The notes beneath the pieces are model-generated. The model saw only the letters and a program-made list of their open reading frames with translations, searched no databases and was not told the origin of the DNA. Positions 156 to 53,736 of a DNA stretch of 64,000 nucleotides are shown piece by piece. The position numbers were made by a program, and so were the translations under genes. Source of the DNA: Chrysomallon squamiferum (Eukaryota; Animalia; Mollusca); the NCBI GenBank assembly GCA_012295275.1, contig CM022665.1, forward strand, positions 4,712,001 through 4,776,000. Reading direction: 5' to 3'. How positions within the stretch are numbered: the first letter of the stretch is position 1; every line of letters starts with the position of its first letter.

Positions 156-1166
156 TTATTATTCTTGTTTTACCTTAAATATTTGATATATTGCAGTATT
201 ATCCAAATGTTTGTTCTGTACATTATGTCATGATATAACATCAGCATTCGGGATACTACCAATATTTCCAGGGGATTTCAGTTTGTTACGGTTTAAAATG
301 CATGATCTGTACTACTACGACATTATGTTTGTATGACTGTATCGGTAACATGATCATCTATAACACGATATCATATCATACTGCATTAACACAGCATCTA
401 CTTATCATCACAATGATAAGTTTTACACTTTGTCGCTAATTTAAATGAATTTAAATATACCATTTTATAATAGTATGAGGTAACTGACTACATTATCAAT
501 TTTAAACACAGAAAAAAAAATACGAAATAAACAAAAAATAAAACTTTAGTGGGTTTCTTTTATATTTCTTTAATATTGTAATAGTAATAATAGTCGTTGT
601 GTTAGCCGTAGCATTAACAGTAATGTTATTAGATAATTTTTAATAGTAGTAGTAGCAATAGCCGTGGTAGTAGCAGTAGCGGTAGTAGTAGTAGTAGTAG
701 TAGTAAAAAAGGAAGATATATTTTACTGAAACCAGGACTAAATTTTTTTCATTTCTTTTTTCTTTTTCTTATTACTTTAAATCTATGATATATTGTCTTA
801 CATACGTAGCACAAATCAATAATAATAATCAAACAAACAAAATAAAATAAAAATTGGCAATTTATTTGCTAACATTATCATCGTCGATGTTTTGTTGTTG
901 TTTTTTGAAATTTTAATCTTTTTAACAGTTCTAAGCTACCATAGAATTATTAGTTATTATTTCGTTTTATACTGAGAAATCGGGATATTGTTTATTTATT
1001 TCTCAGATTGTTGCTGTTGCTGTTTACTACTGTCCATTATTAGTATTATTTAAAAGTAAAAGAAATAATTTATTTATATGGCAAATTCAAGACAGCTGTC
1101 AGATAAATGCTTAATACTAAACATTATTTAAAAAGAATGGAACCAAAACCTGATTCCCATTTATAC

Positions 1167-1310
1167 CTCGCTTTCCCTTAACTGCTGTGTCGCTATTTTC
1201 CCGGCTCTTCTTGCAACCTCTCTGACTCGTCTCCAAGAAGTAAACCAAGCGTCGCTCTGATTTAGAACAACGAACAGAACCATTAGCACAAGAATAAAAG
1301 CAATTCTTAT
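1167..1310 (-). pseudogene. Pseudo-exon of the cationic peptide family (copy A)
   Basis: Homologous to 8044-7867, but the start codon is ATA (cag|ATAAGAATTGCT). The peptide is shortened (WFTSWRRVREVARRAGKIATQQ), the GGAAAGCGAG (GKR) end is out of frame, and no neighbouring EF-hand exons or exon 1 are seen. Confidence 0.8.
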
Positions 1311-2038
1311 CTGAATAAAAAATAGACAAAACATTAGACCAAAAAATCTAAACACAAGACATCAACGATGACAATGTTAGCAAATAAATTTATATTTTTA
1401 TTTTATTTTATTTTATTTTATTTATTCATTTATTATTATTATAATTATCTCTTTTTTTTTTTTTTTTTTAACTCGAAAAACAATTTAATCAAACATATGA
1501 TCTGTCTGAATCGGAAAATTAACCAATACATCGTGGATTTTAAGATGTGAGTAGAAACATTAACGATTCAAAAACAAAAAGAGAAAAAATGTATATATAT
1601 AACTTTATTGAATTGAGAACTATTCGATTAATTTAATAGTCTCATGAAAGCAACTTAGACAACATCCTGTCCTTTTAACCGACTTCATCTTTTAAAACAC
1701 TTAAAAACTAAAAGAGAACAAAAATGATATTCGTATCCATATGTAAACAAGAATTTTTTTTCATATCAGTCTTAATGGAAATAATTACTTTTTTCTTAAT
1801 ATTTTTTTTTTTAGCTTGATGTGTTTTTTACATAGCATTTTAAACTATTTTTAGGAACGGCAAGATGACATTCTATTTGTGTGACTGTACCGGTAACATG
1901 ATCCAACCTATAACACGTTGGCAGAAAATTAATTTGTAACAGATTCAACCAACATCCGGTTAACTGATTGCTGATGGCACATTTTATATACATATCAGTT
2001 AACGTTGCATCACATTGAATTAACAAGCATCTACCCAT

Positions 2039-2125: not shown

Positions 2126-3569
2126 TTGTTTCTAAGTTCTGCGCTGCAGTAATGAGACGCCTTTGTTTGTTAACTACGAGATGAGAACCCTGACGCAGAC
2201 TGTTATGTGATTTCTGTCCTGGGTAGAATTTGTAATTAGGCTTCCATTAACTGAGTAGGAACCTGTGTGTTTTTGTTTTTTGTTTATTTGCTCGTATTAT
2301 GCTCTACCAATTTATTGTTTTTGGGTAGTAAATTTATCTTTCTCTTATACTGAGCAGGCACTTGTACACTGGTTCTAGTAATTTTGCCGAGGGGGGCTGG
2401 TTTAATTAGGGCAGTTACAGATTGGGAACCTTGGCTCTTCCCCACTCTCTGATTAAAAAGACCAGAAAGGGTATAAGCAGCTAGTCATGTATACCAGGTT
2501 TCCATTGACGAGTCACATACTCTACCATGAGAGCAGTCAGTATGTGTCCAGAGGGTCCTGGGTTATTAGTTTTATTCAACATCGTTCAGGACTTTTATCC
2601 AACAATAAAATGGGTTTCGGGGTATTCATGTAAATGTAAATAATTGTACATCGTGAAAGATCTCACTTGTACACAGAAATAATCTATTTATTTGACAACT
2701 AATATTATTTTCGAATATTTTTTTTTTAATTTATTTATTTATTTGTTTTGAGTGAGGAGTTGTTTTGTTTGTTTGCTTGTAATTTATCCAAAAATAAATA
2801 ACATAAAGATCATGCATTTCTTTTAATTAATCTTTTTTTCTTTTCGAAGAAAATGTAAACTGAGAAATAAATAAAATTATACAATCTTAAGAATGTGTTG
2901 TGCTAAGAAAGTATCATAGACATGAACAATCGCAAGACTCTTATAAAACTGTCAGCGCTAATTCTGAACTCTGACTATAACAGTACTAGAACAATTGTAG
3001 TTATCCAGTTCTAGATTGAACGCTTACATTCAGGATATAGCGACAGTTCTCCGGAAAAGAAAAGAAAAGAAAAGAAAAAAAGAAAAAGAAAAACAAATCT
3101 CCGTTCTTTTATTGAAAAAGAAAAGGGACTCGGTTCGAACCTTACCGCTGGCCCTCTGCAGTCTTTAGAAAAATAAACTTTCTTCTTGAATTGTCTTTTG
3201 CTCAAATCGTTCACATTAATTAGTGATTTGGGAGCACTACGGGTCCAAAAATACTCGTACGATGATGTTCAAACTAGATCTATCATAAATCTTTCTGAAC
3301 ACGTGGGATACTGAAATCACTTCCCCTCTTTTCAAAGTTGCACCTGCGGTATTTATTATTCTAACACTTTATTAAACTATTTTTGTTATCCTGGAATGAA
3401 GAGTTGTAATCTGGTTTAATAAATGTGACTTATTTAGTTTCTGTAGCTTCGAAATACACAAACACTTATTGCATGCACAGACATATACATACATATAGAG
3501 ATATATACACACATTCATATGCACTCTAGATACACACAATAAAATTAAACAAACCCTTTTCAGTGTCAT

Positions 3570-4050
3570 ACTTTTATTTGTTTCTTAATAAATGTCTTCA
3601 TGGTCCTTCAAGTTGGAACCTGATGAAAAAGAAAACGAAATAAAAGAAAGGAATAATAATTTGAGAATCTTTAAAATTTTCTTTTTATGCTATACACGTA
3701 CTTGTTACACTACAACCAGTCTTGAGTTACAATGGAGAAGAAGAAGATCATCATCATCATGAGAAAAAGATAAAACAAAAACAAACTTCTGGACAATAAA
3801 ATTTACTGCCACTTAAATGAGAGGTTTCATTAACTTTTAAATAATAATAATAATAATAAACACCTCCGAAGGGTAAAGAAAAAAAATAATTATAAATAAA
3901 TAAATAAATCTATAAATAAATAAATAAAGTAACATGCGACAACCGTATGATAAGTTACAACTGAAATACCGAAAAAGACTTACTTTTATTTATTTTCATT
4001 CATTTCTCTGATCATTCGCTCAAAATCCTGATTTCTGATCTTGGAACTTC
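3570..4050 (-). pseudogene. Orphan duplicate of the last coding exon and 3'UTR exon of the peptide gene (copy B); remnant or alternative terminal exons
   Basis: Exon 4050-3984 encodes GSSKIRNQDFERMIREMNENK* with an intact cag acceptor and gtaagt donor. The UTR exon starts at 3619 and has AATAAA at about 3573-3578. The upstream exons are replaced by transposon sequence from 4204. Confidence 0.78.
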
Positions 4051-4073
4051 CTGTCAACAAAAATCATTCAACT

Positions 4074-4140
<67 letters not shown>

Positions 4141-4203
4141 GGTATTTTACTGAGAGAAAGAAAGAGAGAGTCCATCAAAACAATAATAATGTTAGTCCAC
4201 ACT

Positions 4204-5730
4204 GTTTAGGATACAATTAAACAGTGGAGCATGTGGTGATCGGGGGCCTACATTAGGTATATTCGGCTGCCACAAGAAATCTAATTTCTTTATGTCATAT
4301 TTAAATAATTAAATTGCTGATTGTAGGGAAGCATGAAGTGTGGATAACTGGATCTTCCAATGTCCACAGGGCAAGAATCCAGGAACGGGAAGAGCCACAT
4401 GGAGGCAACCTAGGTTTGCAACAAGCAGGTATCGAGGTAAAATGGTATGGTAACAGGGTATTGCTATGGATACAGCTAGACAGTTTCATTTCAGAAACCT
4501 AATGCTATCATTTTACAGCTGGGTTCGAATGTCATGGTAAGGACGAAGTCCAGGCAGCTGATTCAGAACATCAGTTGTTCTGCCCTACGACTGAGAGAAA
4601 CGATCACCTCTCTGAGGATCGTACGGTCAGTTATGCTGCCTCGCCTCTATTGGCATGGGGCTGAACAATCAAAGCAGGTAGACAAGAAAGAGTGAACAGC
4701 GAGCAAAATCACGGGTTCTTGTAGAGGGAGGAGCAGTCATTGGGCACTCCGCAGTTCGAGTGGGAGATATTGAGTTTTGTTCAGAACTGATCGGATGCAC
4801 TGGTCATTCAAGGGAAATGCATTGCACCTGGAAGGAATGCAGAAAGCAGAGGAAGTGTCGTTTTCGGGTGGAGGCCAGTTGTTTCTATGAGGTAAGTGGA
4901 TGGATGGAGTAGATATAGATTCACTCCGGTGGCGGGACCCCCGCGAGACAGCTATAGAGCTAAGGTTCATCTGGACCAGGGTTAGGTTCCATCTACTGAA
5001 CTGTAGGGGAACACCTTGTTACAAAAGGATTCACATGTGTCTTCCGGGCCGAAGGGGAGTGGGTCAGCCGCAAAAATATAAATTTAGTATTCATAATACT
5101 ACTCTCGAGTTTTTTCTGTTTTGCAGCGTTTAACAGAAACAGAATCGGGTCAACCAGAGCATGAAGAGCCAGATCGACAAGATGCCACCATCATCGGCAT
5201 GACGAGCAAGGAAAGCCGATTGAAGAAAAATGAACATTTAATTTTGTTATAATTCAAGTAATTTAACGGGGTCAGGTAATATAATTTGTCGCACTGATGG
5301 CGGGACAGCTGGGAAACAGCTACAGAGTTAACGTTCATCTGCCCCAGGGTCAGGTTCCACCTACTGAACTGTAAGGAAACACCTTGTTATCAAAGGATTC
5401 ACTGCCAGAAGGGTTACGAATTATCGAAGGGGAAGTTAAGATAATCCAGATATACTTGATCTTCGGATCCGAAGACGAGTTACGCCGACCTAGTAATGTT
5501 GCGGAGGGGGGCTGGTTTAATTAGGGCAGTTACAGACTGGAAACCTTGGCTCTTCCCCACTCTCTGATTAAAAAGACAAGAAAGGGTATAAGCAGCTAAT
5601 CATGTATACCAGGTTGGCACTGACGAGTCACATACTCTACCATGAGAGCAATCATATGTGTCCAAAGGGTCCTTGGTTATTAGTTTTATTCAACATCGGT
5701 CAGGACTTTTATCCAACAATAAAATGGGTT
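4204..5730 (+). mobile_element. Degenerate tyrosine-recombinase retrotransposon (Ngaro/DIRS-like) 3' remnant
   Basis: About 4214-4270 reads TIKQWSMW*SG/AYIRYIRL, resembling the GRWxSxAYxxYIR C-terminus of the recombinase. It is followed by a disrupted SGNH-hydrolase-like frame (VWITGSSNVHRA...GGNLGLQQAGIEVKWYG...ILQLGSN...VMLPRLYWHGA). A ~105-bp direct repeat lies at about 4929-5034 and 5298-5402. GC is higher than the flanks, and the right boundary is approximate. Confidence 0.68.
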
Positions 5731-6977: not shown

Positions 6978-7065
6978 TTATTCATTTTCATTCAGTTCTC
7001 TGACCATCCGCTCGAAATCCTGATTTCTGATCTTGGAACTTCCTGTCAACAAAAATCATTCAACT

Positions 7066-7100
<35 letters not shown>

Positions 7101-8044
7101 TAATAATAATAATAATAATAACAATAACAGTAATAATAATAATAAATGGTATTATACTGAGAGAAAGAGAGAGAGAGAGTCCATCAAAACAATAATAATG
7201 TTAGTCCACACTTTTTATAATTTAAAAAATTTCTTTTTAAACATACTTTTCATTCAACCCAGATATTGAATCTCAGCATTTTAAACAATTTCATTCTGAT
7301 CTGTTAACATTACTGTTATCTAGATTTTAAGATGACTTACCATCCTCGCTAAGAAGTTCGAGAAAATTCTCAGCGTCTCGTCGACTCATTATTTGTTCAA
7401 GTTCTTGTTGGTCCACGATTCCGTCCATGTTGGTGTCGATCTCCGAAACGTCTTAAATAAATTTGTTCATTTAAACTCACAGATAAAGTCACTGAATTAA
7501 GCACATTACAATTTAGTGTAAGCAACATTACAGTAATTGAACTTTGTTCTAAACTGTGTTAAGATATCATATATACCCACACATACGTACCTAAGTTAAA
7601 AATAATAATTTTAAAAGGATTCTTTTTTATTATTTCTAAAATGTAAACTATAATTTTGTGAAAAGTATTAATTTAAAAAATATAATTCTTTCTCCCTTTT
7701 TATTCAGAAAATATATAAATGGATCTAGAAGTTTTAAACTTCGTAACCTCATGTTACCATCTTAAAGAGGTTTTCAAGACACAACAGTCTTTCAAAATCC
7801 AGCTGTCACATAAATGCTAAACATTATTTAACAAGAGTGGAACAAATTCATAATTCTCATTCATACCTCGCTTTCCGGCACCTAGTAACACTAACCCTTT
7901 CCCTATAGCCCACTTTGCAGCAGCACGTTTAACAAAATCTCTCACTCGTCTCCAGCGAATTCTGATACGAAATCTTGGCCAAGCGTCGCCCTGATTTAGA
8001 ACAGCGAACACTAGCACCAGTACAAGGAGAATAGCAAATCTCAT
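6978..8044 (-). CDS. Intact secreted precursor (copy C), 117 aa: signal peptide + cationic Arg/Trp-rich peptide (G-KR amidation/cleavage site) + acidic EF-hand-pair propiece; putative antimicrobial peptide precursor
   Basis: Hand-spliced coding exons are 8044-7867 (MRFAILLVLVLVFAVLNQGDA-WPRFRIRIRWRRVRDFVKRAAAKWAIGKGLVLLGA-GKR), 7451-7341 (DVSEIDTNMDGIVDQQELEQIMSRRDAENFLELLSED) and 7042-6978 (GSSKIRNQDFERMVRELNENE*). All introns are GT-AG and phases match (1-1). A noncoding exon 1 ends at 9530 (aag|gtaagt). A 3'UTR exon starts at 6625, with AATAAA at about 6580-6585. Function is inferred. Confidence 0.88.
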
Positions 8045-8409: not shown

Positions 8410-9484
8410 TGCTACATGTCTGTAACGTTGTGGCTGATCAACTTGTCTTTCAGAGACTGGATTCAGGCTCCGAAAGCGCGGTGGTTTCGTTTTCGTTTTA
8501 GTTTGACTTACATTGTAGACTGCTCACGTCTCAATAGACCTATCACATCAAATACGTTCGGATGACTCTTCTCGGCGATTTGATTGATTTCATGGCGCCA
8601 TCCTTCCAAGTGGTTATTTGTTCAGTGACCGTCATTGCCAAAGTGTTTCTACATTTCTCGAGTCCATGGCCCTTTTATCCAGGTGTTAGTGACGTAGTCT
8701 ATCAGCAGTGTTACCTTTTCATTCTGGGGACTGTCGGCAACTGTGTCAAAACATCCTCAACTTTGTTCAGCGGGATCATCGGAAGGGCTGAATCACGTCT
8801 TACCACCCTTTGTACATCATTGTTTTCAGTATAATTTGAAGCAATCCTACTTTTTGCCTACGGCGCCAAATACACTGAGTGTCTTCGAAGAAAACAGCCT
8901 CTCAGTCGTGTAGTGAGGAATACAGTGCGTACAGCGTTGTGAGCAGATCTCTCAAAGTCCATCTGAAACGTCGTAGGAGCGAAATGAAATCCTAGGGCAT
9001 GGCAAATCTCTTGGATGTACTGGAAATTATGTACGTGTCTTCTGTGCAGTTGGGGAGATGAGAAAACACAAGGGGAAATATATGTCCTTGATATATCAAA
9101 AAGCTCGAGTGCTGAGGAAAATGTCCCATATGAAAATACCACATGAACCTCACACAACAACTCACTCGAACCTATTCAGCTGCCATTATTTTAAATCTCA
9201 AAGAGTTTCCCATGCAAAACTTTACATAGATTAAACAGGAAAAATGTACAGTGCTGAATCAGACACATATAAAAATACTACATTTAAAATAATAGAGACA
9301 AATACGAGCGAAATAAAACAAAAGTGAGGAGACAAAGAAAAATTAACAATAAAAGAAAAGAAAATACACACACGCAAGCATCCGCTCAACTGCTACAATT
9401 ATTTCCTTCTGCTTCCCGGGACATTCATAATTCGGCAAACCGGTACTACACAAAATAGGATTTTCAACGTCCCGGGCCGACACC
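8410..9484 (-). mobile_element. Mutator-like (MULE) DNA transposon remnant in intron 1 of copy C
   Basis: A disrupted frame contains FQMDFERSAHNAVRTVFLTTRLRGCF, like the MULE transposase DFExA...GCxFH motif. One terminus is ...cccgggccgacacc at 9484. The segment is absent from the orthologous intron of copy D. Confidence 0.75.
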
Positions 9485-9529: not shown

Positions 9530-9600
9530 CTTTGAGCTGTAAACTGATTACTCGAAGAAGAAATGAATAAAATTGCTATCGAACTCAGTTACTTTATATC
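9530..9600 (-). promoter_or_regulatory. TATA box and short noncoding exon 1 of copy C
   Basis: Minus-strand GATATAAAG at about 9600-9592 is followed by a short exon ending aag|gtaagt at 9530. The same arrangement occurs at copy D. Confidence 0.7.
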
Positions 9601-11032
9601 CAACTGGTGTTTTTATTTTCACTTAGATCAGAAATAAAATGTGAGATCTTATTAATGCGATGATACCTATATCCTGTTAATGCAATATGTTGCCGAAGTG
9701 AAGTGACCCGATAGTGAAAACAAATTAAAACAAAAATCCTGACCCTTCGATTCTGAACGAGACGTTATGACAATAGAGGATGGAAAGTTCTCAACATTTT
9801 GTTTTAATAAATTAGAAACTGTGATTATTTTGGTGGGTTGTAGAGTATAGTTTTTATTTATTTAACTAGTTCGACTGTTGTTATTTTATTATTATTTTTT
9901 TTTTTTTATAGCAATAAATCTGTGCTAAGAAACGAAGATAAATAGAAAATGGCATTTCTGTCTCTATTTTTTTTTTTTTTAACTGAAAGGTATTCTATTA
10001 ATTTATTGACATACAGCATACATTCATTTTTTTTTTTTTTTTTTTTTTATTTTATTTTTATTTTTATTTTTTTTATTTATTGAAATTATAACATGAAAGC
10101 AATTTAGACGGAATCCTGACCTGTTAACTCACTTTATCTTTTAAAGCACTTAAAAACTAAACGAGAATAAAAGTGATATTCGTATCGATATGAAAACAAG
10201 CACGTTTGTCATATTAATTTTTATGGAAATAATTACTTCTTTTAACCAGATGTGCTTGTTATACAGCACTTTTACTTATTTTTGTGAAGGGAAAGATAAC
10301 ATCATATTTGTGTGACTGTACCGGTAACATGTTCCAACATATAACACGTTTGCAGAAAATTAATGTGTAACAGATTCAACCAACATCCGGTTAACGTATT
10401 GTTGATGTATGCATATATATGTTAATTAACGTTGCAGCATATTGCATTATCACAGGATCTACCCACCATCACACTGTAAAGTTTTCAAACTTTATCGCTG
10501 GCTTAAGTGAACTTAAATATACAAAGTTATAATAGTATAAGGTAACTGGTGACATTTAGTTGTTTTCTTTCTTTTTTCTTTTTTTTTTTTTTTTTTTTTT
10601 TTTTTGGGGGGGGTCTTTCATTTAGTTATAATAGTAGATATGTTAGCCGTTATCATAGCAGTAGTGTTAGTAGATAGTTTTTAGTAGTAGTAGTAGTAGT
10701 AGTAGTATCAACATTAGTAGTGGTAGTAGTAAAGTAAAGCAGTATGTTTTATTGAACGCCATACTAATCCTTTTTTATTTTATTTTATTTTATATTTTCA
10801 TTTTTTCTTTAAATCTGCGATATATTGCCTCTTACACGTAGCACAAACCAAACACACTGCAATCATGTTTCGTGCGACAGCATCAGTGTATAGTACGTGT
10901 GCGTTTTATGTATATATGTATGGATGGACTTTATGGATCAAAAGTACCATTTTGTAAGCGTATGTTTCTCAGCTTTACAGAATTTTGAACCAATAGCACA
11001 AATGAGAAAATAAAGCGTCAACGAGAATCTGA

Positions 11033-13406: not shown

Positions 13407-13488
13407 ACTGTGTGGTAAGTTACAACTGATAATAAAAAGAAAGAAAAATCTGAAGTACCAAACAAGCCTAACTTTTGTTCAGTTTTAT

Positions 13489-14608
13489 TCAATTCTCAGA
13501 CCATTCGCTGGAAATCATGAGTTTTGATCTTGCCGTTCTCTAGGAACAGAAATATTTTAATGAATAATAATAGTAATAATAATAATAATAATGTTGATGA
13601 TGATAATAATAATAAATCGTATTTTGCGCGCGTGAAAGGGAGTGACTGTCCACCAAATCAATAATAATGTTAGTACACACGTTTTATAATCATAAAAAAT
13701 TCTTTTTTAAAGATGCTTCCTTTTACGTCTAGACACTAATTTATTTTATATGAGATCTTTCTTTAGTTATTTTTATTGTTCTTTCGTCTTAAAAAGCACA
13801 GTATTGTACTGTTTTATTTTGAGTTGTTAACCGTTATTGTTATCTATTTTTGAAATGCTTTACCATCTTCGCTAACAGGTTCCTGAAAATCGTCAGCGTC
13901 TTGTCGATATTCAGTGTTTGACGTTCTTCTTTGTCCAGGATGTCGTCCATGTTGGTGTCAATCTCCAAAATGTCTTAAATAAATTTATTCATTTATACTA
14001 ACAGATAAAAACGCTGAATTAAGTACATAACAGTTTGAGAGGTAACAAGACTACAAGAATTAAACCTACATTTTATTAGGAAATGACAGGAAACTATTGA
14101 TTGGTCTAAGCGTACATATATATATATACGTACATTTCAAACATTTACAAATGTACGCATCTTAAACATAATTTTGTTAAACGTTTTTTCAAAACACAAC
14201 ATTCTTCGTTTTAGTTTCATAATTAATTATTCCTCCCTTTTTATTTAGGAAATATATATGTGGATCTGAAGATTGTAAATTGTGTAACCTCATGTAACCA
14301 TCTTAAACGAGTTTTCAAAACACAACAGGCTTTCAAATTCTACATTTTCAAGACATCTGTGAGATAAACGCTTAATATTAAACATTATTTAACAACTATG
14401 GAAACAGAACCTAATTCTCATTCATACCTCGCTTTTTGGCAGTTAGGGCATATGTTATCCCTTTCTGGGTAGCCCATTTTGTTGCAGCGCGTTTAGAATA
14501 ATGTCTGACTCGTCTCCAGCGAAGCTTGACACGAAACTCACCCAAGGCGTCGCTTTCATTCAGAACAGCGAACAGAAGCATCAGTACAAGAAGAAAAGCA
14601 GCTCTCAT
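13489..14608 (-). CDS. Paralog (copy D): intact signal + cationic peptide exon, with frameshifted/degenerate EF-hand propiece; possible pseudogene or truncated variant
   Basis: Exon 14608-14428 gives MRAAFLLVLMLLFAVLNESDA-LGEFRVKLRWRRVRHYSKRAATKWATQKGITYALTAKKR. Exon 13973-13864 is 110 nt versus 111 nt in copy C, a 1-nt deletion after DILEIDTNMDDILDKEE. The exon starting at 13539 has TGA at 13498-13496 in the ancestral frame and at 13491-13489 in the shifted frame. Noncoding exon 1 ends at 15294 and the 3'UTR exon starts at 13094. Confidence 0.78.
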
Positions 14609-15010
14609 CTGTATTAAAAATATATATATATTAAGAAATACGAAATTTTTTTTTTTTTTTTTTTTTAAATTAGACAAACATTTGAAAAAATAAGTAACTA
14701 AATAAATAAATAAATATATAAATGAATAAGTAAGTAAAAATGAAATATTATTTTTGTTGTTGTTGTTCTTCTTCTTCTTTCGTTACTTATTTTTTCTTTA
14801 TTTTCTTTTTTCTTTTCTTTTCTTTCTTTCTTTATTTATTTAAATATATGTATCGAAATGAAAACAGGATTAAAAGAATTTAATGAAATACATGATCTTT
14901 CTGGATCAGAACGTTACTCACTAAATCGATAAAAGTTTTTCAATCCGTGTGTGGAAGAAGATATGATCAGGAAAATTAGCATTTCAAAAACAAAAAGGTT
15001 TAAAAAAAAA

Positions 15011-15056
<46 letters not shown>

Positions 15057-15293
15057 GTAATAAAAATGAGAAAAAGAACCATTCATAAAGGATTACAGAA
15101 CGTTTTGAATTTAGCAACGGAAATTTGTTTGTTTGCTTGTTTTAAATGTTTCAGCTGTTAAAATAAAATACAAACTATTCACAATAATAATTAACCTTAA
15201 AGTGTCTAAAAATGTTCACATAAATCAAAATTATCTTATATAATTTAATACTTTGTAATCGGTTTCAGAATAAATAAAAGTTTCATAACTTAC

Positions 15294-15365
15294 CTTTCCG
15301 TTAAAAATCGACTACTGCCAAAAGAAATAAATATAACCGTTTTCAAACTCAGTTACTTTATATAC
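15294..15365 (-). promoter_or_regulatory. TATA box and short noncoding exon 1 of copy D
   Basis: Minus-strand TATATAAAG at about 15364-15356 and donor aag|gtaagt at 15294; homologous to 9530-9600. Confidence 0.7.
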
Positions 15366-16845
15366 CTAACTGATGTTTTTATTTTCGTTTAAATTAGAAA
15401 TAAAGATCTTATTAATATGACGATAGATATACCTGTCCTATTAATGCAATCTTATCCGTTAAGACATTACGTTGCTCAACTTAAATAAACGGGCAGTTAA
15501 AATAAATTAAAACATATTCCCCTCCGTTCGATTCAAAATCAGAGGTTTTATCAGCTATTCTATACAATATTTATTACAAAAGATAATAGAATTTTTTATA
15601 TATATATTTGCTTTAAGAATTTGAAATTTTGATTGCTATACTACCTTTCACTTTTAATTTGTTCAGTTAGCTCGACCAGAAAAGGACCTACTGGTTTTTA
15701 TGCTAATGAGCGATTTTCGTGACGTCATTTAGTAACGTACTTCCAAATTTCAAAGTTAATCACAAGTAATTTGGGTCATTGCATATTGTTGTTATTATTA
15801 TTATTATTATTAGATGGTCACAGTAAAAAGGAAAAGTCAGTTTTCATGTATTATCGACATTTTTTTTTTTTTTTTTTTTTTAAGTTTCTCTTAGGTCTTC
15901 TTTATTTTTACAATTAATAAGGTAGATCTTGCGATTAGCTATTATCAGAATGTTTCTAAAATAGGAACATATCTGTTCAGATATTTGGGGAGGGGGGGGG
16001 AATAGGGTAGAAATGAAATTTTATGGAATATACCTGATATGCTAATAAAAGTCTCCTTATATTACATGGGAGCATTTGATGTTATGCAGGGAGTAAGGTT
16101 ATCAACTTATAATATCACGTTTGTCATACAGTATAATATTATTAATTTTTTTTTTTTTTTTTTTTTTAAATTTTGCCGTTTGAAAACGCACGAGCTTAAA
16201 AGCCAGGGAGATTAATTACGTGATAACATCATTTCGTTATTTTGACGTTATCTCACGTGTGACACCTGAGAACTATTAATAATTTTTCTTTTTGTCACAC
16301 GACGGTATCTGTCAAGTTTTATCTTTTCCCTCTTTTGTTTTCCAATCATTATTTTCTGGACAACTTAGTGAATTTAAATTATTTCATTGACTCATTCATT
16401 CACATATCTCATATATACATCTACGGTTGTTGTTGGGTTGTTTTTTTTGGGGGGGGTTGTTGTTGTTGTTGTTGTTGTTTTTTACTGCTGTGAAAACCAC
16501 TTAGATGGGATCCTCTCCTTAGTACTCACTCCTCGTTCACCGCCCTTGAAAACCGACACAGTAGGCCTACCTTATTTTTATTAATTTTGATGGAAATAAT
16601 CAGTTTTTCCTTAACAGATGTACTCTTTTTACAGTATTTTGTTACCAATTTTTGTAAAGAGAAAGATAACGTTATATTTGTATAAGACTGTACCTGTAAC
16701 AAGATCTAACCATAACACGTTTTCCGAAAATTAATTTGTAATATACATTTGTTGCTAATACATTAGGTGTGTGTCTGTGTGTGTGTTACTGCGTTAGAAA
16801 TAAATGAGACACACTTTAGTAAGGAACCTTTTCTTTCTTGCTTTT

Positions 16846-23682: not shown

Positions 23683-26600
23683 GGTAACAGCGTTAATAAG
23701 GGGTTCATTGTTTTACTTTTTTAAATTTCATTTTATCCCCAAAAATTACCCATTTTTTAACTGTTCAGAAATATAATTTTGTAAGTGTTTGTTTATATCA
23801 GTGGATCTCAAAGTGTGGTCCATGAGGTCAGTACTATTTTTGTAATAATATTAAAATGTTTTTTGCCTTTATGAATATTGGTTTTAATATATAATGCAAT
23901 AAATGTTGATATCTTTGTAAATAAAACCTTGAAAATAAAAGCTGTTTGGAGTCCTCAGTAATAACATCAAAATATTCATGTATATATTTTTGAAAAAGAA
24001 TGCATTTATTTCGAATGACATTTAAACTAAATTCTCCAGCTTTTTCATGTTTGGAAACTAACATGATTTGCAAGAAATAGTGAATTAGAATAATAACAGA
24101 CTGTTTTAAAAAGCTTGATTACGTGTGCTTATAATAGGACCTATGTGTTCTTGCTTACAGATTTTGTGTGAAATATGCTTCAGTGAACAGCACATAAGAT
24201 CTTCAAAAACATTTTAGTAAATATTTTAACTGATACTTTTTGAAAAGAAAAAATTTTATCTACACTGAGATCTGTTTTGATTGCTTTTCTGTGCTTGTAA
24301 GTTTTATGCTTTGTGTTGTACAGAGAAAAATTGTTGCTGGATTATATTTTTTGAGGGTGTCTTTTTTGTTGTTGTTTTTTTTTTTTTTTTTGGCTGCTAA
24401 CAATAGCATTTTGTTGCAAATTTCTTACTGCATGCAGGAACCAATAGATCATACAGGCGATTTTCGAGTGATTCGATGGGAATTCAACAATAAAGACCCA
24501 GAACTTGCACAAACACCTGAAGTTGAGTATACTGATGCTTTTCCTGGGAGGGGCAGAGGATATCGAAAATTCCAAAGCTCTTCAGATCCACGGAGAAGGC
24601 CATATCAGAGGAGAGTGAATGATCAGAATAGATTCAGCTTTCCTCAGCTTCGCCAGGACAGGTCTCATGAAGACAGTGATGAAGAAGAGCATCACTGGGA
24701 GAGAGAACAACATGCCATTGGTGCTGGTGGTGACAACAGGTTCAATAGAAAGCCACGGGAGATAAGAAACAATCTGTTTTCGCCTTCATCTCCTGCTGCT
24801 ACAGCTGGCAGAGGGAGACTGCAGGAATTATCTCAAGATGGCAGCGTGAGTTGGGTCTTTGATCATAGTTTGATTCTGTAAAAAGTTAAGTAAAATTTTA
24901 ACATGTACAGACCCTGCTGCCTTTTTTCATCATCTATTTTAGTGACCTGAATTTTGCTTCAGAAATCCAACAAGTCAGAACTGTGCATGCTAAGTTTTGA
25001 TTTTGCACATCATGTTTTGAAGTAACAAGGATTATTGTACAAAAGACAAAAAATTATTTGGGGAGAATGTAGCCAATAACATACCCTACTAAAATCTGTC
25101 AAATTTGTTTTATTGTTCAAGAAATTGTTCAGCTTTTGATTTTATATACATTAATCATATACTAGATGTTTTTGGTATGTCTAGATGAACCTATAGTGTT
25201 TATATTAAATTACTAATTAGTAATTTGAATGAGAAAATACAAAATAAAAAGTGTTTGATGACATGTTGAGTGTGCATGTTTTGTCTTACTTTGGTTTTAT
25301 GTTGCATTTAACTTTGTGAATTTGTTTAGAAGACCATTACAACAAGTTCTTACAGCTTGGTGTTAATTTACTATATTTCTTGGTTTAACAGTGTTGAATA
25401 CATATAACTTGTTGTGTTTCTAGGGTCCCCCTCCAGACCCAGCCTACAACTTTCTATCTGACAGGCGCAGAGAATCATCTAACCAAGAAAGGGAATCAAG
25501 AGATTCAGCCCGAAAAGAAACAAGACGACATCCAAAAAACTTTGGAGGTCAAGACTTTGGAAATGTTCCTGCTCAGATGCGAGAGAGGAAAGAAAGACAA
25601 GTACTGTGTTTTTTAGTTGAATTTAATAATAATGTACAGTATTAACTCTTTGTTTTTAATATCTGCAGTATTTATATAATTATACATTTAGTAGTTGGTG
25701 TTATTAAAAAAATGTTGATTGTGAATAATATTTTGACAGGTTATATCTAAAAGCCCCCAAGATTTAATAGTAAACAGTACAGTTGTATACTTCAGTCATG
25801 ATAATCGTCATCAAGCTAACTAATAAAGCGCATCTTGGGATTATACAGAAATTATGTGCCTAACACATAACAACTGTTAACATTTAAAACATATATGCAT
25901 GGATCAGTAAATAAATATCAGTTCATTAATTTTCATGGAATAGTGATTTTTTTTTTGGTTGTTTTCATTACAGGAAAGACCAAAATCTGGTCCACCAAGA
26001 ACTAAACTGGAAATGTCTCTGGCAATGACAGGACGAGAACGACTGGAGTACACTCAGTGGAAGGAAGAACGAGAACGTATTGACAGTGAGAGACTTGCAC
26101 GACAAAAATCACAAACTGGAGAATGGCGCAGAGCATGGGATGCTGAGAAAAATCAGCAAGAGTGAGTAATTTTCTTCATATTAATTTACTGCTGAGGCTT
26201 TAGGCAGGTGGGCCTTAATTTACTGTGCTTGAAACTGCATGTGTTTTAGCACTGTGCATATGCATTATCTTCAAAGATAAATTTATTAATTTAAAATTAA
26301 TATCTAATTAAATAACACAAAGTACATGTATTAAACTGCTGTACTGAAATCTGAAACTAGCAGTTTATTAAATTTACATTTCAGTATTACACTACTGATT
26401 TATTTTCAGTTAACTGTTGTCACAAAAAAAGATCTGTTTAAAAGTACGATTTTTAACAAATATTTCAGAAGTATTATCTTGAAACTAAATGCATGGAAAC
26501 ACTTTTTAATTGTCTTGGTTTCTTGCAGTTTTCAATAGATTAACATTTGTTGTTTTTAAAGATAATTGATCAGTATAATCATTTTCTTTTAAATTTTATA

Positions 26601-29600
26601 ATTTTATATTTATAAAATGCCAAACTCATTCAAAACTTCGATTTTCTTTTTTTCGTCAGTTTCGAAGAAACTTCCAGTACACAAAGAACAGAGCCAGCTA
26701 AACGACCAGGTGAGAATTTTAAATTTTACGAAAAGTATTGTTTAGAAAATCAATTAGTTTTTCACAGAAATAATTAGGGATAAGTACTTTTTTATTATTA
26801 TTATTATTTTTTTTTTTTTTTCACAATGTTATATCAAGTACAAATATTTAGTTAAATCAGAGAATTAAAAAATAATCTAGAACTGCTTTTTAATATTTCA
26901 TAACAGTTGTTTTTGATTCATACAAGTAGGTTGTATGGTATTTTCAACAACTGACTGAAATTTTTACTATATACTTGACAATGAGGCACATCTATTCTGC
27001 CTTTATTTTAAGCTGGTCGAATTGGTAGTGGTAGATTTGACCGTGGTGAACGAGATGATCGCCACCGGGTTGATGGCCCAGCTCGGCAGAAAGGTATTGC
27101 CTGCCTTGCTTGCTGCCTTATTTTTCACCCCTGTAAATTTATGGTGTGCTGGTCTTTTCATTATAATTGATTTTGCATATCATCCATGTCAGTTTGTGCT
27201 AACAGTTTTGAAACTGTTGAAGTTACCATTTTCATCCTGTGGCATGGTCATTTATGTCAAATTGTGCTAATAGTTTTTAAACCGTTACCAGTTTTCAAAT
27301 CATCCAGAAGACATCTGATGTGTGTGTCATGTTTATTTATATTTGTTTTTGAATGTCTCGTGTGTTATTTTGTTTGTGAGAAAGAAGTGAGGTTTAGCAG
27401 TTTTTACAGTATAGACATTGAAGCAATGTGTAGTTTAGACATAAAAAACTCTTTTTCTGCTATGTATCAGTTTTTGATTTAAAAACTATATTAATACATA
27501 TTATATACTAGTATATGTTTGACAGCCTGACAGTGTAACTGCTACTTCTTTACTTCACAAGCATTACAATTCTAGGGTTGTTTTCCTTGAATGATAATCT
27601 TCAGAATAATCATGTATGAAAAACTTTCTACAATGTAAACAACATAAATATTACTTCATGTATATAAGTCCAAATTCTGAATATTCCTCTTTGTTCTTGT
27701 TTTAACAGTGTAAACACTAGGACATAAACAGTGTTCTAAATGATGTAATTTTTACATTATTATTTCAATCATGTACCCATCATAGGCATTTTGAAATTCT
27801 TTTCCAAGGAGTTAATGCGAAGTATGGCATGATTTGGTTTGTGCATTATTTCATAATACTTGTTTTGAAATAAACTAATCAGTTCATTCTCATTATTAAT
27901 CATAATCATCCATTCTGCTTGTTTTTATCCAAGCTCCTCATTTTTTAGTTTGAATTTTTATTTTATCATTTTTCTTATAGCTAAACATTTTAAATGTAGA
28001 TAAAAGCATGATTAGTTTATTCTAGATAAATTACTAAACAATGAAGTAATTCATTTGATACATATATAAACACATGAAAAGCATGCAAGATAGAATTGCT
28101 TTTTGCATGTACATCTGTCATAAATTATTTACAGCTTTTCTTTCTTTTCAAATAGACCAAATACAGAAGGTTAACCTGAACAAACTTTTGGTTATGGCAA
28201 TCCTTATTTTATCGTATTTATTTTTATATTTTTTCTTGAAATATAATTTATATTTATTTGTTTTGAAGGTGACTCTTTTTACTTTATTTCAAAAATTTAT
28301 AATCTTTTAAGTAACCTAAGAGAATAAAACTTGTTTATTGAAATTATGTTACATAATTAATGTTTTCTTTTCCTTCATTGTATTACTTTTTCTTTTTCCA
28401 TGCAGTCATAAATGCCATATAAATTAGCTTGTTGTCAATATAAATAATTAATTTAGGATAATATGAGCATAAACAAAGTTTTATATATTTTCACTTGGGT
28501 TTAATGTTAAATAGATGGTTGAGTGTTGTACAATTTCATCATACTTTTAGGTGGCGTTAAACAAGAACAAGATCAGCTTACACCAAAATCTGGTCGAGGT
28601 CGTGCAAGAGGTCGTGGACGAGGCAGAGGCCGAGGTTCACCCCGCCCACGAACATTTTCAGGTGGAGATGAAACACGCAAAGTGGAATGCCAGAAGGACT
28701 TACTGGTGGTAAAGATTGACAATTCTGGAAAAGAACAAGACCATTCAGTAGAAGTTGAATACTGGGATGATGACCTTACAGAAATCAAGTCAGTAGGAAA
28801 GACACCTCCACCTGGACCCACACATGCTCCACCATCCCAGAAACAAACTACACAAGAAACAGATGCTGCAGGTAAACAATTCCAGGCTCCATCATCTTCC
28901 TCACTAGCTGTCAAGGATCAGTTTACTGCCTCTGTACATGACATGAGCAGGAAACCAGGAGAAAGGACTGACAGTCAGAGTCAGAGTGCAGGAGATGAGA
29001 ATGACCATGATGAATCATGGGAAGACTGTCCTGACAGTTCAGAATTTTATGGAACCACTGATGATGAAAGCAGGAGCCAGTCAAGTCACAAGGACTTTGA
29101 CAAGGGTGAGAAAGGTAAAGACCATCATCTGAAATTAAAAACTAAACTGAATCCAGATGCTGCTGAGTTTCAGCCATCACCTCCTGATTCTAGTCTAAAT
29201 GAATTTCTGCCAACATCTCCAGATTTCATGAAAACTCCTCCTGGCCATGTTAAGGTTATGGACTGGGTTTCAGAAGTCACAGATAATCTAAGTCCAACAT
29301 CACCACCACCAATGGAAGGATACCATATCAGAAAAGAGGACTTTATTCAAAAGGACTCCCAAATGGCTTCATTTAATGCAGATGCATGTCAAGATGACTT
29401 GGCTGCAAAGAGCTCTTCTGCTGAAGAAGTTACAAAAGATATATCACAAACTTCTTCAAATGAACAGATAAACCATAAGAATTTGGAACATATAGATACA
29501 GTTTGTGAAGAAGAAGGTGATGAATTATTTGAAATAGCCCCTGAAGATGGAGAAGGCCCCAATGATGAACCATCATTGAAGAGTGCAGAAGCACCTGAAA

Positions 29601-31392
29601 CTTTTTCTAGTGCCAGTCCAGAAGTAGCACAAGATGTAAAGGTCCACACTGATGATGACAGTGAGAATAATCCAGAACCTGTGGAAACTGATAATAGTGT
29701 AGAAGCCAGCAACTTGCCTGACCAATTGGTGCTTGATTCCAAACCATCTGACAAAGAAGTAGATATTTCTTCTTTAGCCATTGAGACAGAAAATCAGACT
29801 GAAACAAAAGATGTTGAGGACAGCAAACCAGAACTAGATGAGGACAGCAAACCAGAACTAGATGAGGACACCAGTACGCCATCCATTGAGGAAATCAGTG
29901 TAAATGAAGTGCATGATGACAGTCATAAAAATGATGTAGATGAAGTAAATAAATCTGATTCAGAAGTTTCAGCTGACCTTCCAGAAGAGAGTCAAACTGA
30001 GGACTCTTCAGAAACAAGTGTAAAAGAGAGTGAAAGTGCATCAATACAAATGGTTCCTTCTCCCAGCCAATGTGAAACAGACCCTAATGTTAAATCTTCA
30101 GATCAAGGAAGAAAGTGAGACAGTCAGCACTCAAGATGTTATAAAAGATACATGTGAGAAAACTGATGATCACCTGTCTGAACCAATTGTCCCTAGTGAA
30201 CAAGCAGCTATAGACAGGGAAATTGAAGATAAAGCAGGTAAATCATGTGTCATATAAAGTTGTTTTGTCCTCACCATAAACTGCATTACATATCGTATAT
30301 TTGTTATCTCGTATGTACTTCCCAGGAAGTTGTTACTTGATTATGTTTTACAATGCATTTTGTTTCAAACTGTGATTCTGATACTTCAAGCAGCTTGAAT
30401 GTATTCATTTACAATGTACATATATACTGAATGGTAAATTAAAGAATGTAAATAGCATGATTGTCATCAGATCTGAATTATCGACATAGTCAAATTTTTA
30501 CATTCACTGCAGTTTTTGTTTTTTTACCTTATTTTATGTATGCAAGCTGTGTTCAAACCCTCTTATATGGAATGAATATATTACAGTTTATCCATGCATT
30601 TATAATTCATATCAACTAATAGCAAACTAATGAATTTTCAGATGAATCAGCCACAGAACAGAAGAGCTCAACAAAAGCTGAATCAGAAGGTGCTGACAAA
30701 GAGCCTTCTACTACTACTGAGGACAGATCTGCAGCAGAAAGTCCACTTGTAAGCATTGTTAGCCTAGACTGTCTGTCTGTCAGATTCAGACCCACTAATT
30801 CCACATTTTAAATCCATTGATGGTAAGTATGTATAGGGAATAAAAACAGGTGATGGAAGCTGGGTGGTGCTGGGGTAGAATTTTGTGTTTGTAGTTGGTG
30901 TTAACCCCACAGATGTAAGTAATTTTTATTTGTGTTGGATGAAATGGATTTGGCATGATAGAATCTGTACTTAGTGGCTGGTTTGTGGCTGGTAAGTAAA
31001 CATTTAGATACATTCAGTTCAGACAAAATTAATGGTTTAATTATGTATATCTTAAAAATTGTTTTCTTTTAATTTTAGTGTGTGCTTGTGGACAACACAT
31101 AAAAATAAATATATATATATATATTTTTTTTTTTTTCAACTCATTCACCTTTTAAATTTGAAAGTTACTTTCTTCCCAAAATTTTAGTTAATATCTGTTA
31201 GTCTTATTTATTTGCATAGTAGCAATGTTTTTCAGTATTAATTATCGAACATTCTAAATATATTTTATGTTTGCTTGTTTGTTTGTGATATGTTTTCAGT
31301 TGGGTACAAAATATAACACAGTATTGGATTTCACACAATTTCATAACATAATCAAATTCTATTTTTCTTTTTTCTTTTTTCAGTCTTCTTGA
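21464..31392 (+). CDS. CCDC9: Coiled-coil domain-containing protein 9-like (CCDC9/CCDC9B family), RG-rich with a long acidic low-complexity C-terminus
   Basis: Approximate exons: 21464-21472, 22039-22152 (LTKEEREALLNKKMEEIRKKNDALRKRHQ), 22601-22720 (EIEADKK), 23242-23316, 24438-24845, 25423-25600, 25974-26161 (MTGRERLEYTQWKEERERIDSERLARQKSQTGEWRRAWDAEK), 26660-26709, 27013-27093, 28551-30237, 30642-30748, 31384-31392. The two conserved blocks match my recollection of CCDC9. There is an apparent frameshift near 30105; as assembled, the frame stops at 30118. Confidence 0.85.
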
Positions 31393-37185: not shown

Positions 37186-41026
<3,841 letters not shown>

Positions 41027-41995: not shown

Positions 41996-42896
41996 TCAAG
42001 TCTTATAAGATATAATTAATAATAATTTAATGTACACTACTTAAAATATCAAATGAAATTATGAACTTTTCTTATGGTGTAAAAGGAATGATGCCATTCA
42101 ACAAAAAATCTTACTATCACGTGGTCGTTCTTTCGCTTTATTTCGGGTACTTTCGGTTCTTTCCGGGAATAATATGGTTAAACATTATCCACGGATTGTG
42201 AATTTCGGTTTCTTAACTGCATCATGTGTAATGCAACTCAGTGACAGGAACATTATTGTTTAAAATACTCATGATGTCAGATATTGCAATCAGAAGCACC
42301 AAATATACTACACATCTGTGATAAATTTGGTGTCCACGTAATGTTTATTTCCGTAATTTCGTACCACAGTCATTTGGTACTACAGAATCTTGTTACCTAT
42401 CTTTTCCATACATTAAACAGATGATTTAATATATTTTCATCTCAACAGTATAATTATATTTCAGGAATGTCTCCGTATGTTATCTATGTCTGTATGTATA
42501 TACGCCTGTACTTCTGTTTAATTAATTTTAGTAATCACTGCGTATAAATTATTTAGTTTTTATTTAAATAACCTTAAACCTGTGTAACAAAATTTCTATC
42601 ATCTATTTTCCCTGGGCCATGATTTTGTGTCTTTTTAGATTTGTTTTTAATTTGAAATAATAATACATAATGATACTCTATAACTGACCATAATTTTAAA
42701 ATTTATTACTGATATTATTTATTTATTTATTTATTTATTTATTGTAAATAAATCCAGTATCACTTTTCTTTTCATTTTTGCTCTTAAATTTCTTGTTGTA
42801 ATTGTAAAAAAGGTTCTTGTTACAAGTATTTCCTACATGTAAACAATGATTTATTATTATTATTATTATTATTATATTAAATTTTTTACAGTTGTA

Positions 42897-45800
42897 ATGG
42901 ATAGACAAACTGTAAGAAAGAAAGGCCATCCTAATCGTGGTGGTGGCAGATTTAACAGAGGTAGTGGTCAGCGTGCACGAGGTCGGGGAAGAGGTCAGCG
43001 TGTGTCACACAGTGGAGGAGGAGCAAGGGGAGGAGGGAGTGGTTTTCAGCGTAAAGGATTTGATGACCACTATGACTGGGATGACCGACCTCTCGATGGA
43101 CTTGAGAAAGATGATCAGAATGATAATTACACATCTCCTTCACACAGCCATGAACCAGCCAAGTGAAAATTTTCAAATGTTTTATTCAGAATTAATTAAT
43201 TTAAATTTAATGCAAATAGAATTTAATTTGTGCACCCAGGTCCATCAGAGCAGATGAAATAACTTTATTTAAGTATATATTTTATGTTAGCAAAAAATGT
43301 AATATTTCTATGGATTTCCATAAACTTCACATGTATGATAGGAATTATGTGAGTGCTTGAGATGCTTATTTACATTTTTTTAAATTTATTTATATCTTAT
43401 TTCTTTTCTCAACTGTTCAGAATGTGGACAAGACCACCGAAAGTCAAAGTTCAAATGCAGAGTCTTCAGATGACTAGAGAAAATCAGGACATGATTCGTG
43501 ACATGCTGGAAGAACTGCATGGAGAAGAACTAGATATTCCTGGGTCTGTGACAGTTAAATTAATTATTTATAGAATCACCTAGTTTTAGGGTGAGTGGGG
43601 GATGTGGTCCATAATAATCTGGAAGACAAAATGAGTTTTACTATAAAAAAAAAGAAAACAACATAAAAAGCATATATATTTTGTGCCATTTTGGAAAGTG
43701 CAGAAAAAAAAAATTCTTTGCTAAAAATAAAACAGCTTTGTTCCACAAATTTGTCTTGGATTTCTTATCAAGGAAAACTAAATACAATGAAATTTATCAT
43801 TAGCCAAACAGTTTTTGGACCAATTTAAAATTTAGTTTTTAGTTTACTGAGGTTTTACATTTAGGTACTTGATAAGTTATGTGACTACAAAACTAAAAAT
43901 TGTTTGATTTTGGGGAATTCTGGTTTAGTGTGGGTCCAGTTTTGTCAAATTTTCACTGTTCTGACATTTAATATCTTTAATAATTAATACTAATTTATAA
44001 TAATGTGTAATTAATCAAAATTGTCCTTCCTATATTTAGAATTATTAATTTATATATATATATATTTGTTTATAACTGTAGTGAAGAAGAATATGACTAT
44101 CTTGATGTACGTTCTGAAGATCAGTACTGGGTGACTGATCGAGGTCTTCAGATTGAAGACAGTTACAGCTATGCAATGGAAGATCAACAGACTAGCTGTA
44201 GCAAAGCAGTAGATGTGAACCTGTTTGCCATTAACAAACTTGTAAGGTAAGTTGTCTTTTTTTTTAACAGAATAGATACTTAAAGAATATCTTGGACAGT
44301 ATTAACTAAATATGATTTGAATATTTCCAAATGGTGGTTTTGTTTAATTGGCAGCGAAGAAGCTTTGCTGCTAATAATATATAACCAATGGTATACATGT
44401 ACTATCAAGATCCATGTAAATACAGATGTTAATTGTTTACAGCTGTTAAACAAGTGACGCAAAATTTAGAAATGTCAGTAAGAAGTTAATGTGTTGTCTT
44501 TTAAACTTAAAGTCTACATTATAATTAACACTGGCTGGTATTAATAAAATCTTCTAAAATTCCAATAATTAATTTTTATGTTTGTTAAAAATGTTTAGAA
44601 ATGTGTCATATGATAGACATGTATGTAATGAAGCTTATCAGTTATGTAATAGAGATTTTGTTTTCATACATGAATTTCTTTTAGGTGATTATTTTATAAT
44701 CTTCTAAAATTTGGCCTTTTCTTATTAGATATGGTTTTGACAGAGAAAGATGCATCGAAGCTTATCAACTTCATGATGGAGACATAGGTTCCTCTCTTGA
44801 ACATCTGTTAATAGAATGTTTTAAAACTGAGTTGGAATCAAGTAAATATTTTGGACAAACAGACAACAGTTTTTGGCAACAGGTTAAGGAAAGCAGACAG
44901 GAAGAAATGGTAGCTCTTAAATCTATATACGAAGACAAATTTGAAGAAAGGATAAGTAACATGGTTTGGGTTTTGTATTTGGACTTAGATCCTTTAACAG
45001 AAATTGTTTCCCCTAAAGAGAAAACTACCAATAGAACTGAAAATAAAGTTTCTAGCAATATATGTAAATATTTTTTAAGTGGAAATTGTAAATTTGGAAG
45101 CCGATGTAAATATAAACATGAAACTGCAGAAAAGAATTCTGACATGACTAAAGAAACATATCTTTATCAGCTTGAAATTCGATTTCCTTCCGGAAACTGT
45201 TACCCACATGAACCTCCCATGTTAGCATTTTCTTCTTCATATCAGTTCATGCCCACACATATCAGTCTGAATATAACCAAACATTTACTTAAAGAAGCTA
45301 TAAGTCTTTCACAAACTGCAGAACCTGCTGTATTTAGTCTGGCAAGTCTGTTAAATGATCCTTCATGGGTGGAATCAGTAGCAGGTGAAGCTCCCTCAGA
45401 AATGAGTCTTCCAAAACCTGTAACCAGCCAGTTCAGACCTGTGAGACAGGGAGTGTTAGGTGAACCTGCGGAGGTGGAGGTGACACAGACAGAGGAAAAC
45501 ATAGATAAGAAAAATGTGGAGGCCTTAATTAGGATGACAGAAAAAGGAGCTGAAATTACCCCTGAAGAAGATGTTTTGCCTCAGAAATATAGACGAAAAG
45601 ATATTGTACCTCCAAAGTTGTCAGAGTCTCAGCTTAGGAAAACAAATCAGATGTTGAAACAAGAATATGATAGGAAAAAAGTAAGTATATATGAGATCTC
45701 ATAATATAATACACAAACATACATACGTACTTAGATACATGCACAACACCATACACACACAAATATATTTATTAAACCTATTTTCAACTGGATTTTCAGT

Positions 45801-48110: not shown

Positions 48111-48141
<31 letters not shown>

Positions 48142-49054
48142 TTATTTTATTAGTTATGGAAATACTAATTACACTGTTTTCTCACTTTCAGTGACTTTCT
48201 TTTAATGATCTTACAAAATTTGTTGCCAGTGAGACATGATTTGAAAGTTGTATTAATGAGTGCAACTCTGAATGCTCAGCTTTTTTCTGATTATTTCTCT
48301 CTCTGTACAACCACTGAAATCCCAGGTAACCTTATTATATTATGAAGTAGAACATTATTTTATTTTTTTAACTTTATCACCCCCTCCCACCATGGAAACA
48401 GACTTAATTTATTATTTTTTTAATTACAAGTATGATTCTTGTGTGAAAAAAACTCCACTGTAATAAATCTGTTATAATTTAAATAAAAAGTTTATTTACT
48501 GAATTGCTTAATATTTCCAAATTCTTTATATATTTTTTGTACATGTAAATAAAATGGTTAATATATAATTTGTATAGGGTGTTGCTGTTGAATGGTATTG
48601 AAAAGCATTTGCATCAATACAGTAACTGAAAGAGAACAAGAATTTAATTAATTTTATTGTGTTTGTTTGTGAGCACATGGATGATTGTGTATGTATGAAA
48701 CTGAGCTTCTGAAATGCAAGTTCAGTCAATATAAACTGAGTGGTTCTAATATAATTTCAGGAAAAACATTTCCTGTTGACCAGTTCTTTCTTGAAGACAT
48801 CATAGAGTGTACCAGGTCAATATTATATTCTGTTTACTCATCTAGGAATTTGTTTGATGTCTGTTTTATAAAATAATTGCCTAAGCATCATATGTTCTTT
48901 TTAAAAAAATGTGTAAATTGTGGGACCCTGTGCTATGTCCAGTTTAGAAGACTGGTGTTGAAAACTGAGACACAGGTAACTGAATTTTGATTTACAAATA
49001 TGTTTTAGTAATATAAATGTTTTTTTTTTTTAAAGTGTTTGTTAAATATTTCAA

Positions 49055-49118
<64 letters not shown>

Positions 49119-53684: not shown

Positions 53685-53736
<52 letters not shown>

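Follow-up and report, generated by a model that had tools for sequence, protein, structure and literature searches.

Three kinds of molluscan precursor come closest to the gene described here. Myticalins, which were antibacterial in tests, are depicted in the part of PMC5577615 covered here as having a conserved signal, a hypervariable Arg-rich centre and pseudogenes, with one intron immediately upstream of the ATG and another, of phase 1, that closely follows the dibasic site. Mytimycins carry an EF-hand extension after the dibasic site, the role of which is stated to be unknown in the covered sections of PMC8004829. In a gastropod, an interneuron gene of Helix lucorum (Bogdanov et al. 1998, PMID 9622259, to go by its title) encodes putative peptides together with an EF-hand region, and the available portion of PMC7749107 names these as the first molluscan PRXamide peptides. 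Antimicrobial peptides of gastropods amount to a handful of single peptides in a 2025 review (PMC12466427), as far as its accessible text goes.

We analysed a 64-kb window (Chrysomallon squamiferum, contig CM022665.1, positions 4,712,001 to 4,776,000), which is AT-rich eukaryotic DNA with introns. On its minus strand lies a precursor gene, copy A, that shares elements of layout with each of these systems and belongs to a spliced multi-copy family with a homologue in the gastropod Gigantopelta aegis. The parts of copy A are as follows:

9592..9598, minus strand: TATA-box-like TATAAAG, read from the sequence, a putative promoter element
9530..9564, minus strand: putative non-coding first exon, ending at 9530 with the donor AG/GTAAGT; its start is an estimate
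8044-7867, minus strand: first coding exon, 59 codons + 1 nt; RNA contigs of paralogues cover part of it
7982..8044, minus strand: predicted 21-aa signal peptide with G-D-A at its end; copies B and C retain it
7877..7981, minus strand: predicted mature peptide, 35 aa, with 8 R, 3 K and 1 D (+10), 3 Trp and no Cys
7868..7876, minus strand: G-K-R, predicted amidation and convertase site, found also in G. aegis and in three RNA paralogue ends
7451-7341, minus strand: second coding exon, 111 nt, phase 1-1, covered by RNA contigs in 3/3 RNA runs; it holds EF loop 1 (7437-7402), the linker helices and the start of loop 2
7042-6978, minus strand: third coding exon, with the rest of the degenerate EF loop 2 (to 7017), the exit helix and the stop TAA

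Spliced in this way, copy A yields a precursor of 117 aa, composed of a signal of 21, a peptide of 35, G-KR and a tail of 58, the last with 17 D/E and 6 K/R (net -11). A sequence-only reading of this DNA had proposed the three small exons, and both its splicing and its residue and charge counts were reproduced: introns 1 and 2 are GT-AG and phase 1, an RNA contig spans intron 2, and the tail agrees with that of G. aegis at 30/58 positions. The RNA evidence consists of assembled contigs from three RNA runs, all of one study; a fourth run, of unrecorded kind and likewise in contigs, covers the introns, and neither contig depths nor RNA gaps over introns were taken as expression levels. Between the two junctions proposed for checking, 7341/7042 is bridged by RNA-library contigs in 2/3 RNA runs (including one contig of 122 nt with 0 mismatches), whereas 7867/7451 of copy A is bridged by none of the contigs listed for the three runs and is matched in paralogues only, its acceptor (7451) being joined in 3/3 runs to paralogous first exons ending G-K-R. 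When 1120 GT/AG combinations were scored against the G. aegis protein, the three-exon model ranked second (284); the top score (285) belonged to a variant shifted by 4 nt, which was ruled out by the RNA contig.

The same strand carries three damaged or partial copies within 15 kb:

13475..15450, minus strand: copy B, with a 37-aa peptide of +10; its promoter block is intact, and so is its first coding exon (14608-14428)
1093..2037, minus strand: copy C, with first coding exon 1310-1167, in which ATA replaces the start codon and the frame changes ahead of the basic site
2375..4208, minus strand: copy D, partial, with a last exon (4050-3986) identical to copy A at 60/65 nt, and flanks

Copy B, the second exon of which is 110 nt (one base short) and the third of which has a premature stop, is likely a pseudogene; its basic site reads K-K-R, with the Gly absent. 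Copy C is likely a pseudogene as well: its non-coding exon region is absent, and no second exon was found within the window. A second exon of copy D was sought upstream and none was found. The place where the upstream exons of copy D would be expected is occupied by a GC-richer block (4220-5400) with an internal 105-nt repeat. Copies A and B are identical at 51/63 nt in the signal, 80/114 in the peptide region and 88/111 in exon 2, a contrast that relies on a likely pseudogene. Among the RNA contigs, one keeps signal and tail with 116 unalignable letters between them, and the three paralogue ends differ in sequence and all retain G-K-R. By contig-coordinate arithmetic, one RNA paralogue encodes a peptide of ~17 aa (+4) before a tail that is identical at 72/77 nt over the covered part. 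Constant flanks, the signal and the tail, surround a variable peptide cargo. The variant table gives 9 amino-acid changes in the tail vs 1 in the peptide, but covers only contigs of at least 85% likeness, so that divergent peptides are hidden from it. At a single site, as many as 11 contigs of the intron-covering run show a variant; this suggests further copies or alleles and gives no count.

Immediately 5' of the ATG (8044) in the first coding exon lies an acceptor AG, and the RNA loose end that abuts the ATG matches 12/15 nt at 9532, directly before a consensus donor that is kept in copy B. Because of this acceptor, and because the loose end falls at a conserved donor downstream of TATAAAG, copy A is likely a gene of four exons, the first of them non-coding. 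Its promoter block and the region upstream of copy B are identical in 150/211 columns. Upstream of the TATA box, blocks conserved between copies A (9600-9700) and B (15360-15460), on the minus strand, are candidate regulatory sites. The first intron of copy A also contains a decayed MULE-transposase-like remnant (8538-9175, E 0.05).

The sole relative among 1.84 billion representative proteins, searched with a 59-aa query of little power, was G. aegis LOC121370314 (XP_041351389.1, XP_041351390.1; E 4.9e-4, 49% identity over the first exon), which comes from a peltospirid gastropod and is annotated as 'uncharacterized protein'; literature searches found no published function for it. Its layout is that of copy A, with a signal identical at 13/21 positions (the signal of copy A was called by eye and on this identity), a 33-aa peptide of +9, G-KR, and a tail of -13 that is also 58 aa long and aligns without gaps (30/58 identical), scoring 156 vs a shuffle maximum of 59 (0/3000). 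The score between the two peptides was reached by 7/3000 shuffles, and the Cys count is 0 in the peptides of copy A, copy B and G. aegis. The G. aegis isoforms part exactly at the position of intron 2 of copy A. In isoform X2 an alternative last exon removes EF loop 2, so the full EF-hand pair may be dispensable, or the X2 gene model may be wrong.

The sequence-only claim of an unrecognised Cys-free family was borne out in that no curated family matched and the one relative is uncharacterised. Exon 1 had no match in NCBIfam or PDB and gave 0/605 candidates in a word-index search against longer proteins; profile and database searches of exon 1 and of the G. aegis protein returned no toxin family, and the only match to an antimicrobial peptide family was Moricin (PF06451) at 13.7 bits (E 0.053), far under the Pfam cut-off of 27.6. 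A metagenome match (L001, 1/217 pattern matches passing) ran for 18 residues to a stop and was rejected as chance. Literature searches, with most subscription journals outside their scope, turned up no description of this locus and none of a linear cationic peptide joined to an EF-hand tail. The family is likewise undescribed in the covered parts of PMC7889660, PMC11359391, PMC5673964, PMC13070813, PMC7551771, PMC3299671, PMC5455113 and PMC8398477, and in the available main text of the G. aegis preprint (bioRxiv 10.1101/2020.09.23.308304).

The 35-aa peptide alternates Arg and hydrophobic residues at its N-terminus, is amphipathic in the middle and hydrophobic at its C-terminus, with computed moments of up to 1.24 as a strand and up to 0.91 as a helix. 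RR and KR also occur inside the peptide, so that further cutting is conceivable and the final product may be shorter than 35 aa; the internal KR falls in a different alignment column in G. aegis. These internal sites, like the non-coding exon and copies B, C and D, go beyond the sequence-only reading.

The loop test applied the canonical EF-hand loop pattern. As proposed in the sequence-only reading, loop 1 of the tail fits this pattern, with Ca2+ ligands at positions 1, 3, 5 and 12, and loop 2 is degenerate: with Ser and Asp at positions 1 and 12, it fails the pattern, and it lies in register with the near-canonical loop 2 of G. aegis. Loop 1 likely binds Ca2+, and loop 2 is likely weak or empty in copy A. 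Exon 2 alone matches Pfam EF-hand_5 (E 2e-4, under the curated cut-off) and stays under the cut-offs of the single-hand models, and its word-index search gave 0/6 candidates; the G. aegis protein clears the Pfam cut-offs of EF-hand_1, _6 and _7 (isoform X1, EF-hand_7, 31.9 vs 30). Among solved structures, the best sequence matches of the tail are calmodulin and CaBP1, and the G. aegis protein is closest to calmodulins. In calmodulin genes, as in copy A, the second loop is presumably interrupted at its fourth residue by a phase-1 intron. Compared with calmodulin or CaBP1, the tail would be a single lobe with a 5-residue entering helix and a shorter linker, in a predicted secreted protein. Since only 5 residues separate KR from loop 1 and the loop starts are 29 residues apart, a spacing shorter than in calmodulin, the tail is best described as a truncated EF-hand lobe. 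Loop-1 positions 1, 3, 5, 6 and 12 are untouched by the listed amino-acid changes in the tail (0/9, a comparison of low power). The tail contains a second RR, but G. aegis has T-R there, and the site was therefore not taken to be a conserved cleavage site. AlphaFold2 models of the G. aegis protein (pLDDT 47.5 alone, 56.3 with a thin alignment whose exon-3 rows were misplaced) were given no weight, and Foldseek found no match to the second at E <= 0.001. In the Atlas, 9/10 rows of structure matches begin at homologue residues 30-43, inside the peptide (low-confidence model, pLDDT 0.55), a weak hint that the peptide helix may stand in for the missing entering helix, and feature matches for the homologue, all < 0.8, serve as leads only.

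Set beside the myticalins and modiocalins of Mytilidae, in the parts of PMC5577615 and PMC12294457 covered here, copy A is alike in its signal, Cys-free Arg-rich peptide, KR, frequent amidation Gly and anionic extension. The myticalin likeness extends to the intron before the ATG, the phase-1 intron after KR and the arrangement in multigene clusters with pseudogenes. Copy A differs in having one more intron, inside the tail, whereas the myticalin extension is described as encoded in one exon; that extension is given as low-complexity without a named domain, whereas the copy A tail is best read as an EF-hand pair, and the term 'EF-hand' occurs 0 times in PMC5577615. The signals differ too, with a myticalin consensus of MKG...ECEG against MRF...QGDA in copy A, and in the covered texts myticalins and modiocalins are reported only from Mytilus and Modiolus. 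Among the 1.84 billion representatives, nothing besides G. aegis appeared that could speak for myticalin homology, though with the 59-aa query this carries little power. The mytimycins of Mytilida, as far as the covered description of PMC8004829 reaches, are alike in signal, cationic peptide, dibasic site, conserved anionic EF-hand extension and non-coding first exon, but release a 54-aa antifungal peptide with 12 Cys (reference form) and have an extension of 75 aa, against 35 aa, 0 Cys and a 58-aa tail in copy A; the two tails are likened by description. The Helix gene, by its title, resembles copy A in being a gastropod gene for putative peptides plus an EF-hand region and differs in its cargo of short PRXamide neuropeptides; no P-R-X-amide motif precedes G-KR in the copies, G. 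aegis or the RNA paralogues. The layout of peptide plus EF-hand has, in these partially covered sources, two molluscan precedents (mytimycin and the Helix gene). Judged by signal, extension and Cys content, the copy A family appears to belong to neither myticalins nor mytimycins; it is apparently undescribed and combines two known molluscan designs.

We favour, at a probability of roughly 60%, a family of linear, amidated host-defence peptides, each made with a generic EF-hand pro-domain. The precursor would be secreted and its signal cleaved after Ala21. Cutting at G-KR and processing by convertase, carboxypeptidase and PAM, as predicted for myticalins, would then give an amidated Cys-free cationic peptide which, to go by its composition, likely kills microbes at their membranes. 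The conserved EF-hand tail likely acts as a generic pro-domain and keeps the peptide shielded for as long as the two are joined, with neutralisation mainly via charge, Ca2+ in a structural role and no switch, and release by proteolysis. Since the tail lacks most of an entering helix, we speculate that the hydrophobic C-terminal helix of the peptide may occupy the missing place in the precursor. Support for this host-defence reading comes from the turnover of copies B, C and D, the variable cargo between constant flanks, the Pfam-grade EF-hand pair of G. aegis and the precedents set by myticalins and mytimycin. A bolder elaboration, which we consider doubtful, is that Ca2+-loaded folding would complete a calmodulin-like truncated lobe with the peptide helix, lock the peptide and mask KR; the tail would then be a reusable molluscan carrier (for mytimycin, Helix neuropeptides and the present peptides), and its cargo here fast-turnover linear antimicrobial peptides in vent-snail relatives that could police bacterial symbionts.

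The sequence-only reading had likewise favoured an antimicrobial-type precursor, which stands as the best reading, but had added a charge-matched tail that binds the peptide in calmodulin-target fashion as a Ca2+-dependent safety catch, and this addition drew little support. That a calmodulin-like lobe grips the peptide helix specifically and a change in Ca2+ releases it seems unlikely to us, even if the EF-hand pair is most like calmodulin, the peptide has a basic amphipathic Trp-containing segment and the folded tail has persisted after divergence from G. aegis (30/58). The 1-8-14 and 1-5-10 target spacings are at chance level, being equally frequent in shuffles (2728 and 2738 of 5000), and the lobe itself is truncated: just 5 residues precede loop 1, and the loop spacing is 29. 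Nor do the charges vary together: +9 goes with -13 in G. aegis, and the ~17-aa RNA paralogue peptide carries +4 on nearly the same tail, which thus serves different peptides. Haemolymph is rich in Ca2+, as are secretory compartments; with Ca2+ high on both sides and loop 2 degenerate in copy A, it is difficult to see where an on/off switch would act.

Somewhat less likely again is a neuropeptide or hormone precursor, in which the basic region would be cut at the internal RR and KR into short signalling peptides. G-KR and the internal dibasic sites would suit it, and the Helix gene (presumably HCS2) is, by its title, a gastropod precedent with peptides and an EF-hand region; yet there is no repeated short motif, the internal KR sits in another column in G. 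aegis, and the copies turn over with pseudogenes. Receptor ligands as a rule conserve the C-terminal residues next to the amide, and here these residues differ in all paralogues. We hold as quite improbable a secreted Ca2+-binding protein of shell, scale or mucus matrix, with the EF-hand as its active part and the basic N-terminus as an anchor to polyanions. Secreted EF-hand proteins occur in the mantle, the tail is the best-conserved part of the precursor, and Atlas clusters of molluscan EF-hand proteins of 133-145 aa lie at 0.76-0.77 (a lead only); against this, a conserved G-KR separates peptide from tail in three RNA paralogues and G. aegis as well as in copy A, loop 2 of copy A is decayed, and a variable basic region better suits a defence cargo. 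Equally improbable is a cytolytic defence peptide aimed at animal cells, those of predators or parasites, and not at microbes: the C-terminus is long, hydrophobic and predicted to be amidated, and the layout of signal, peptide, G-KR and acidic tail occurs in venom peptides, but no toxin family matched, and composition cannot tell lytic from antimicrobial action.

The linear peptides of this multigene family, a homologue of which occurs in a symbiont-bearing vent snail, are candidate host-microbe effectors and new peptide leads. The role of the mytimycin EF-hand extension, stated as unknown in the covered part of PMC8004829, becomes testable in copy A, which is the easier system because a 35-aa Cys-free peptide is paired with a 58-aa tail.

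Elsewhere in the window, on the plus strand, 37954-38538 and 39580-39999 are two tandem YrdC/Sua5-domain exons with 70% DNA identity. A multi-exon gene at 24234-30808 (plus strand), which we take to be CCDC9-like, includes a DUF4594 exon (25947-26162, E 2e-19) and, at 28523-30118, a long acidic exon that weakly matches PAM2. The RNA-helicase-like gene at 42843-60938 (plus strand), presumably DHX57-like, has an RGG-rich exon, an exon with a CCCH finger and an RWD domain (44832-45704) and a weak OB_NTP_bind exon. Positions 49587-49766 and 58860-59118 hold a 180-nt imperfect inverted repeat and a 129-nt tandem duplication.
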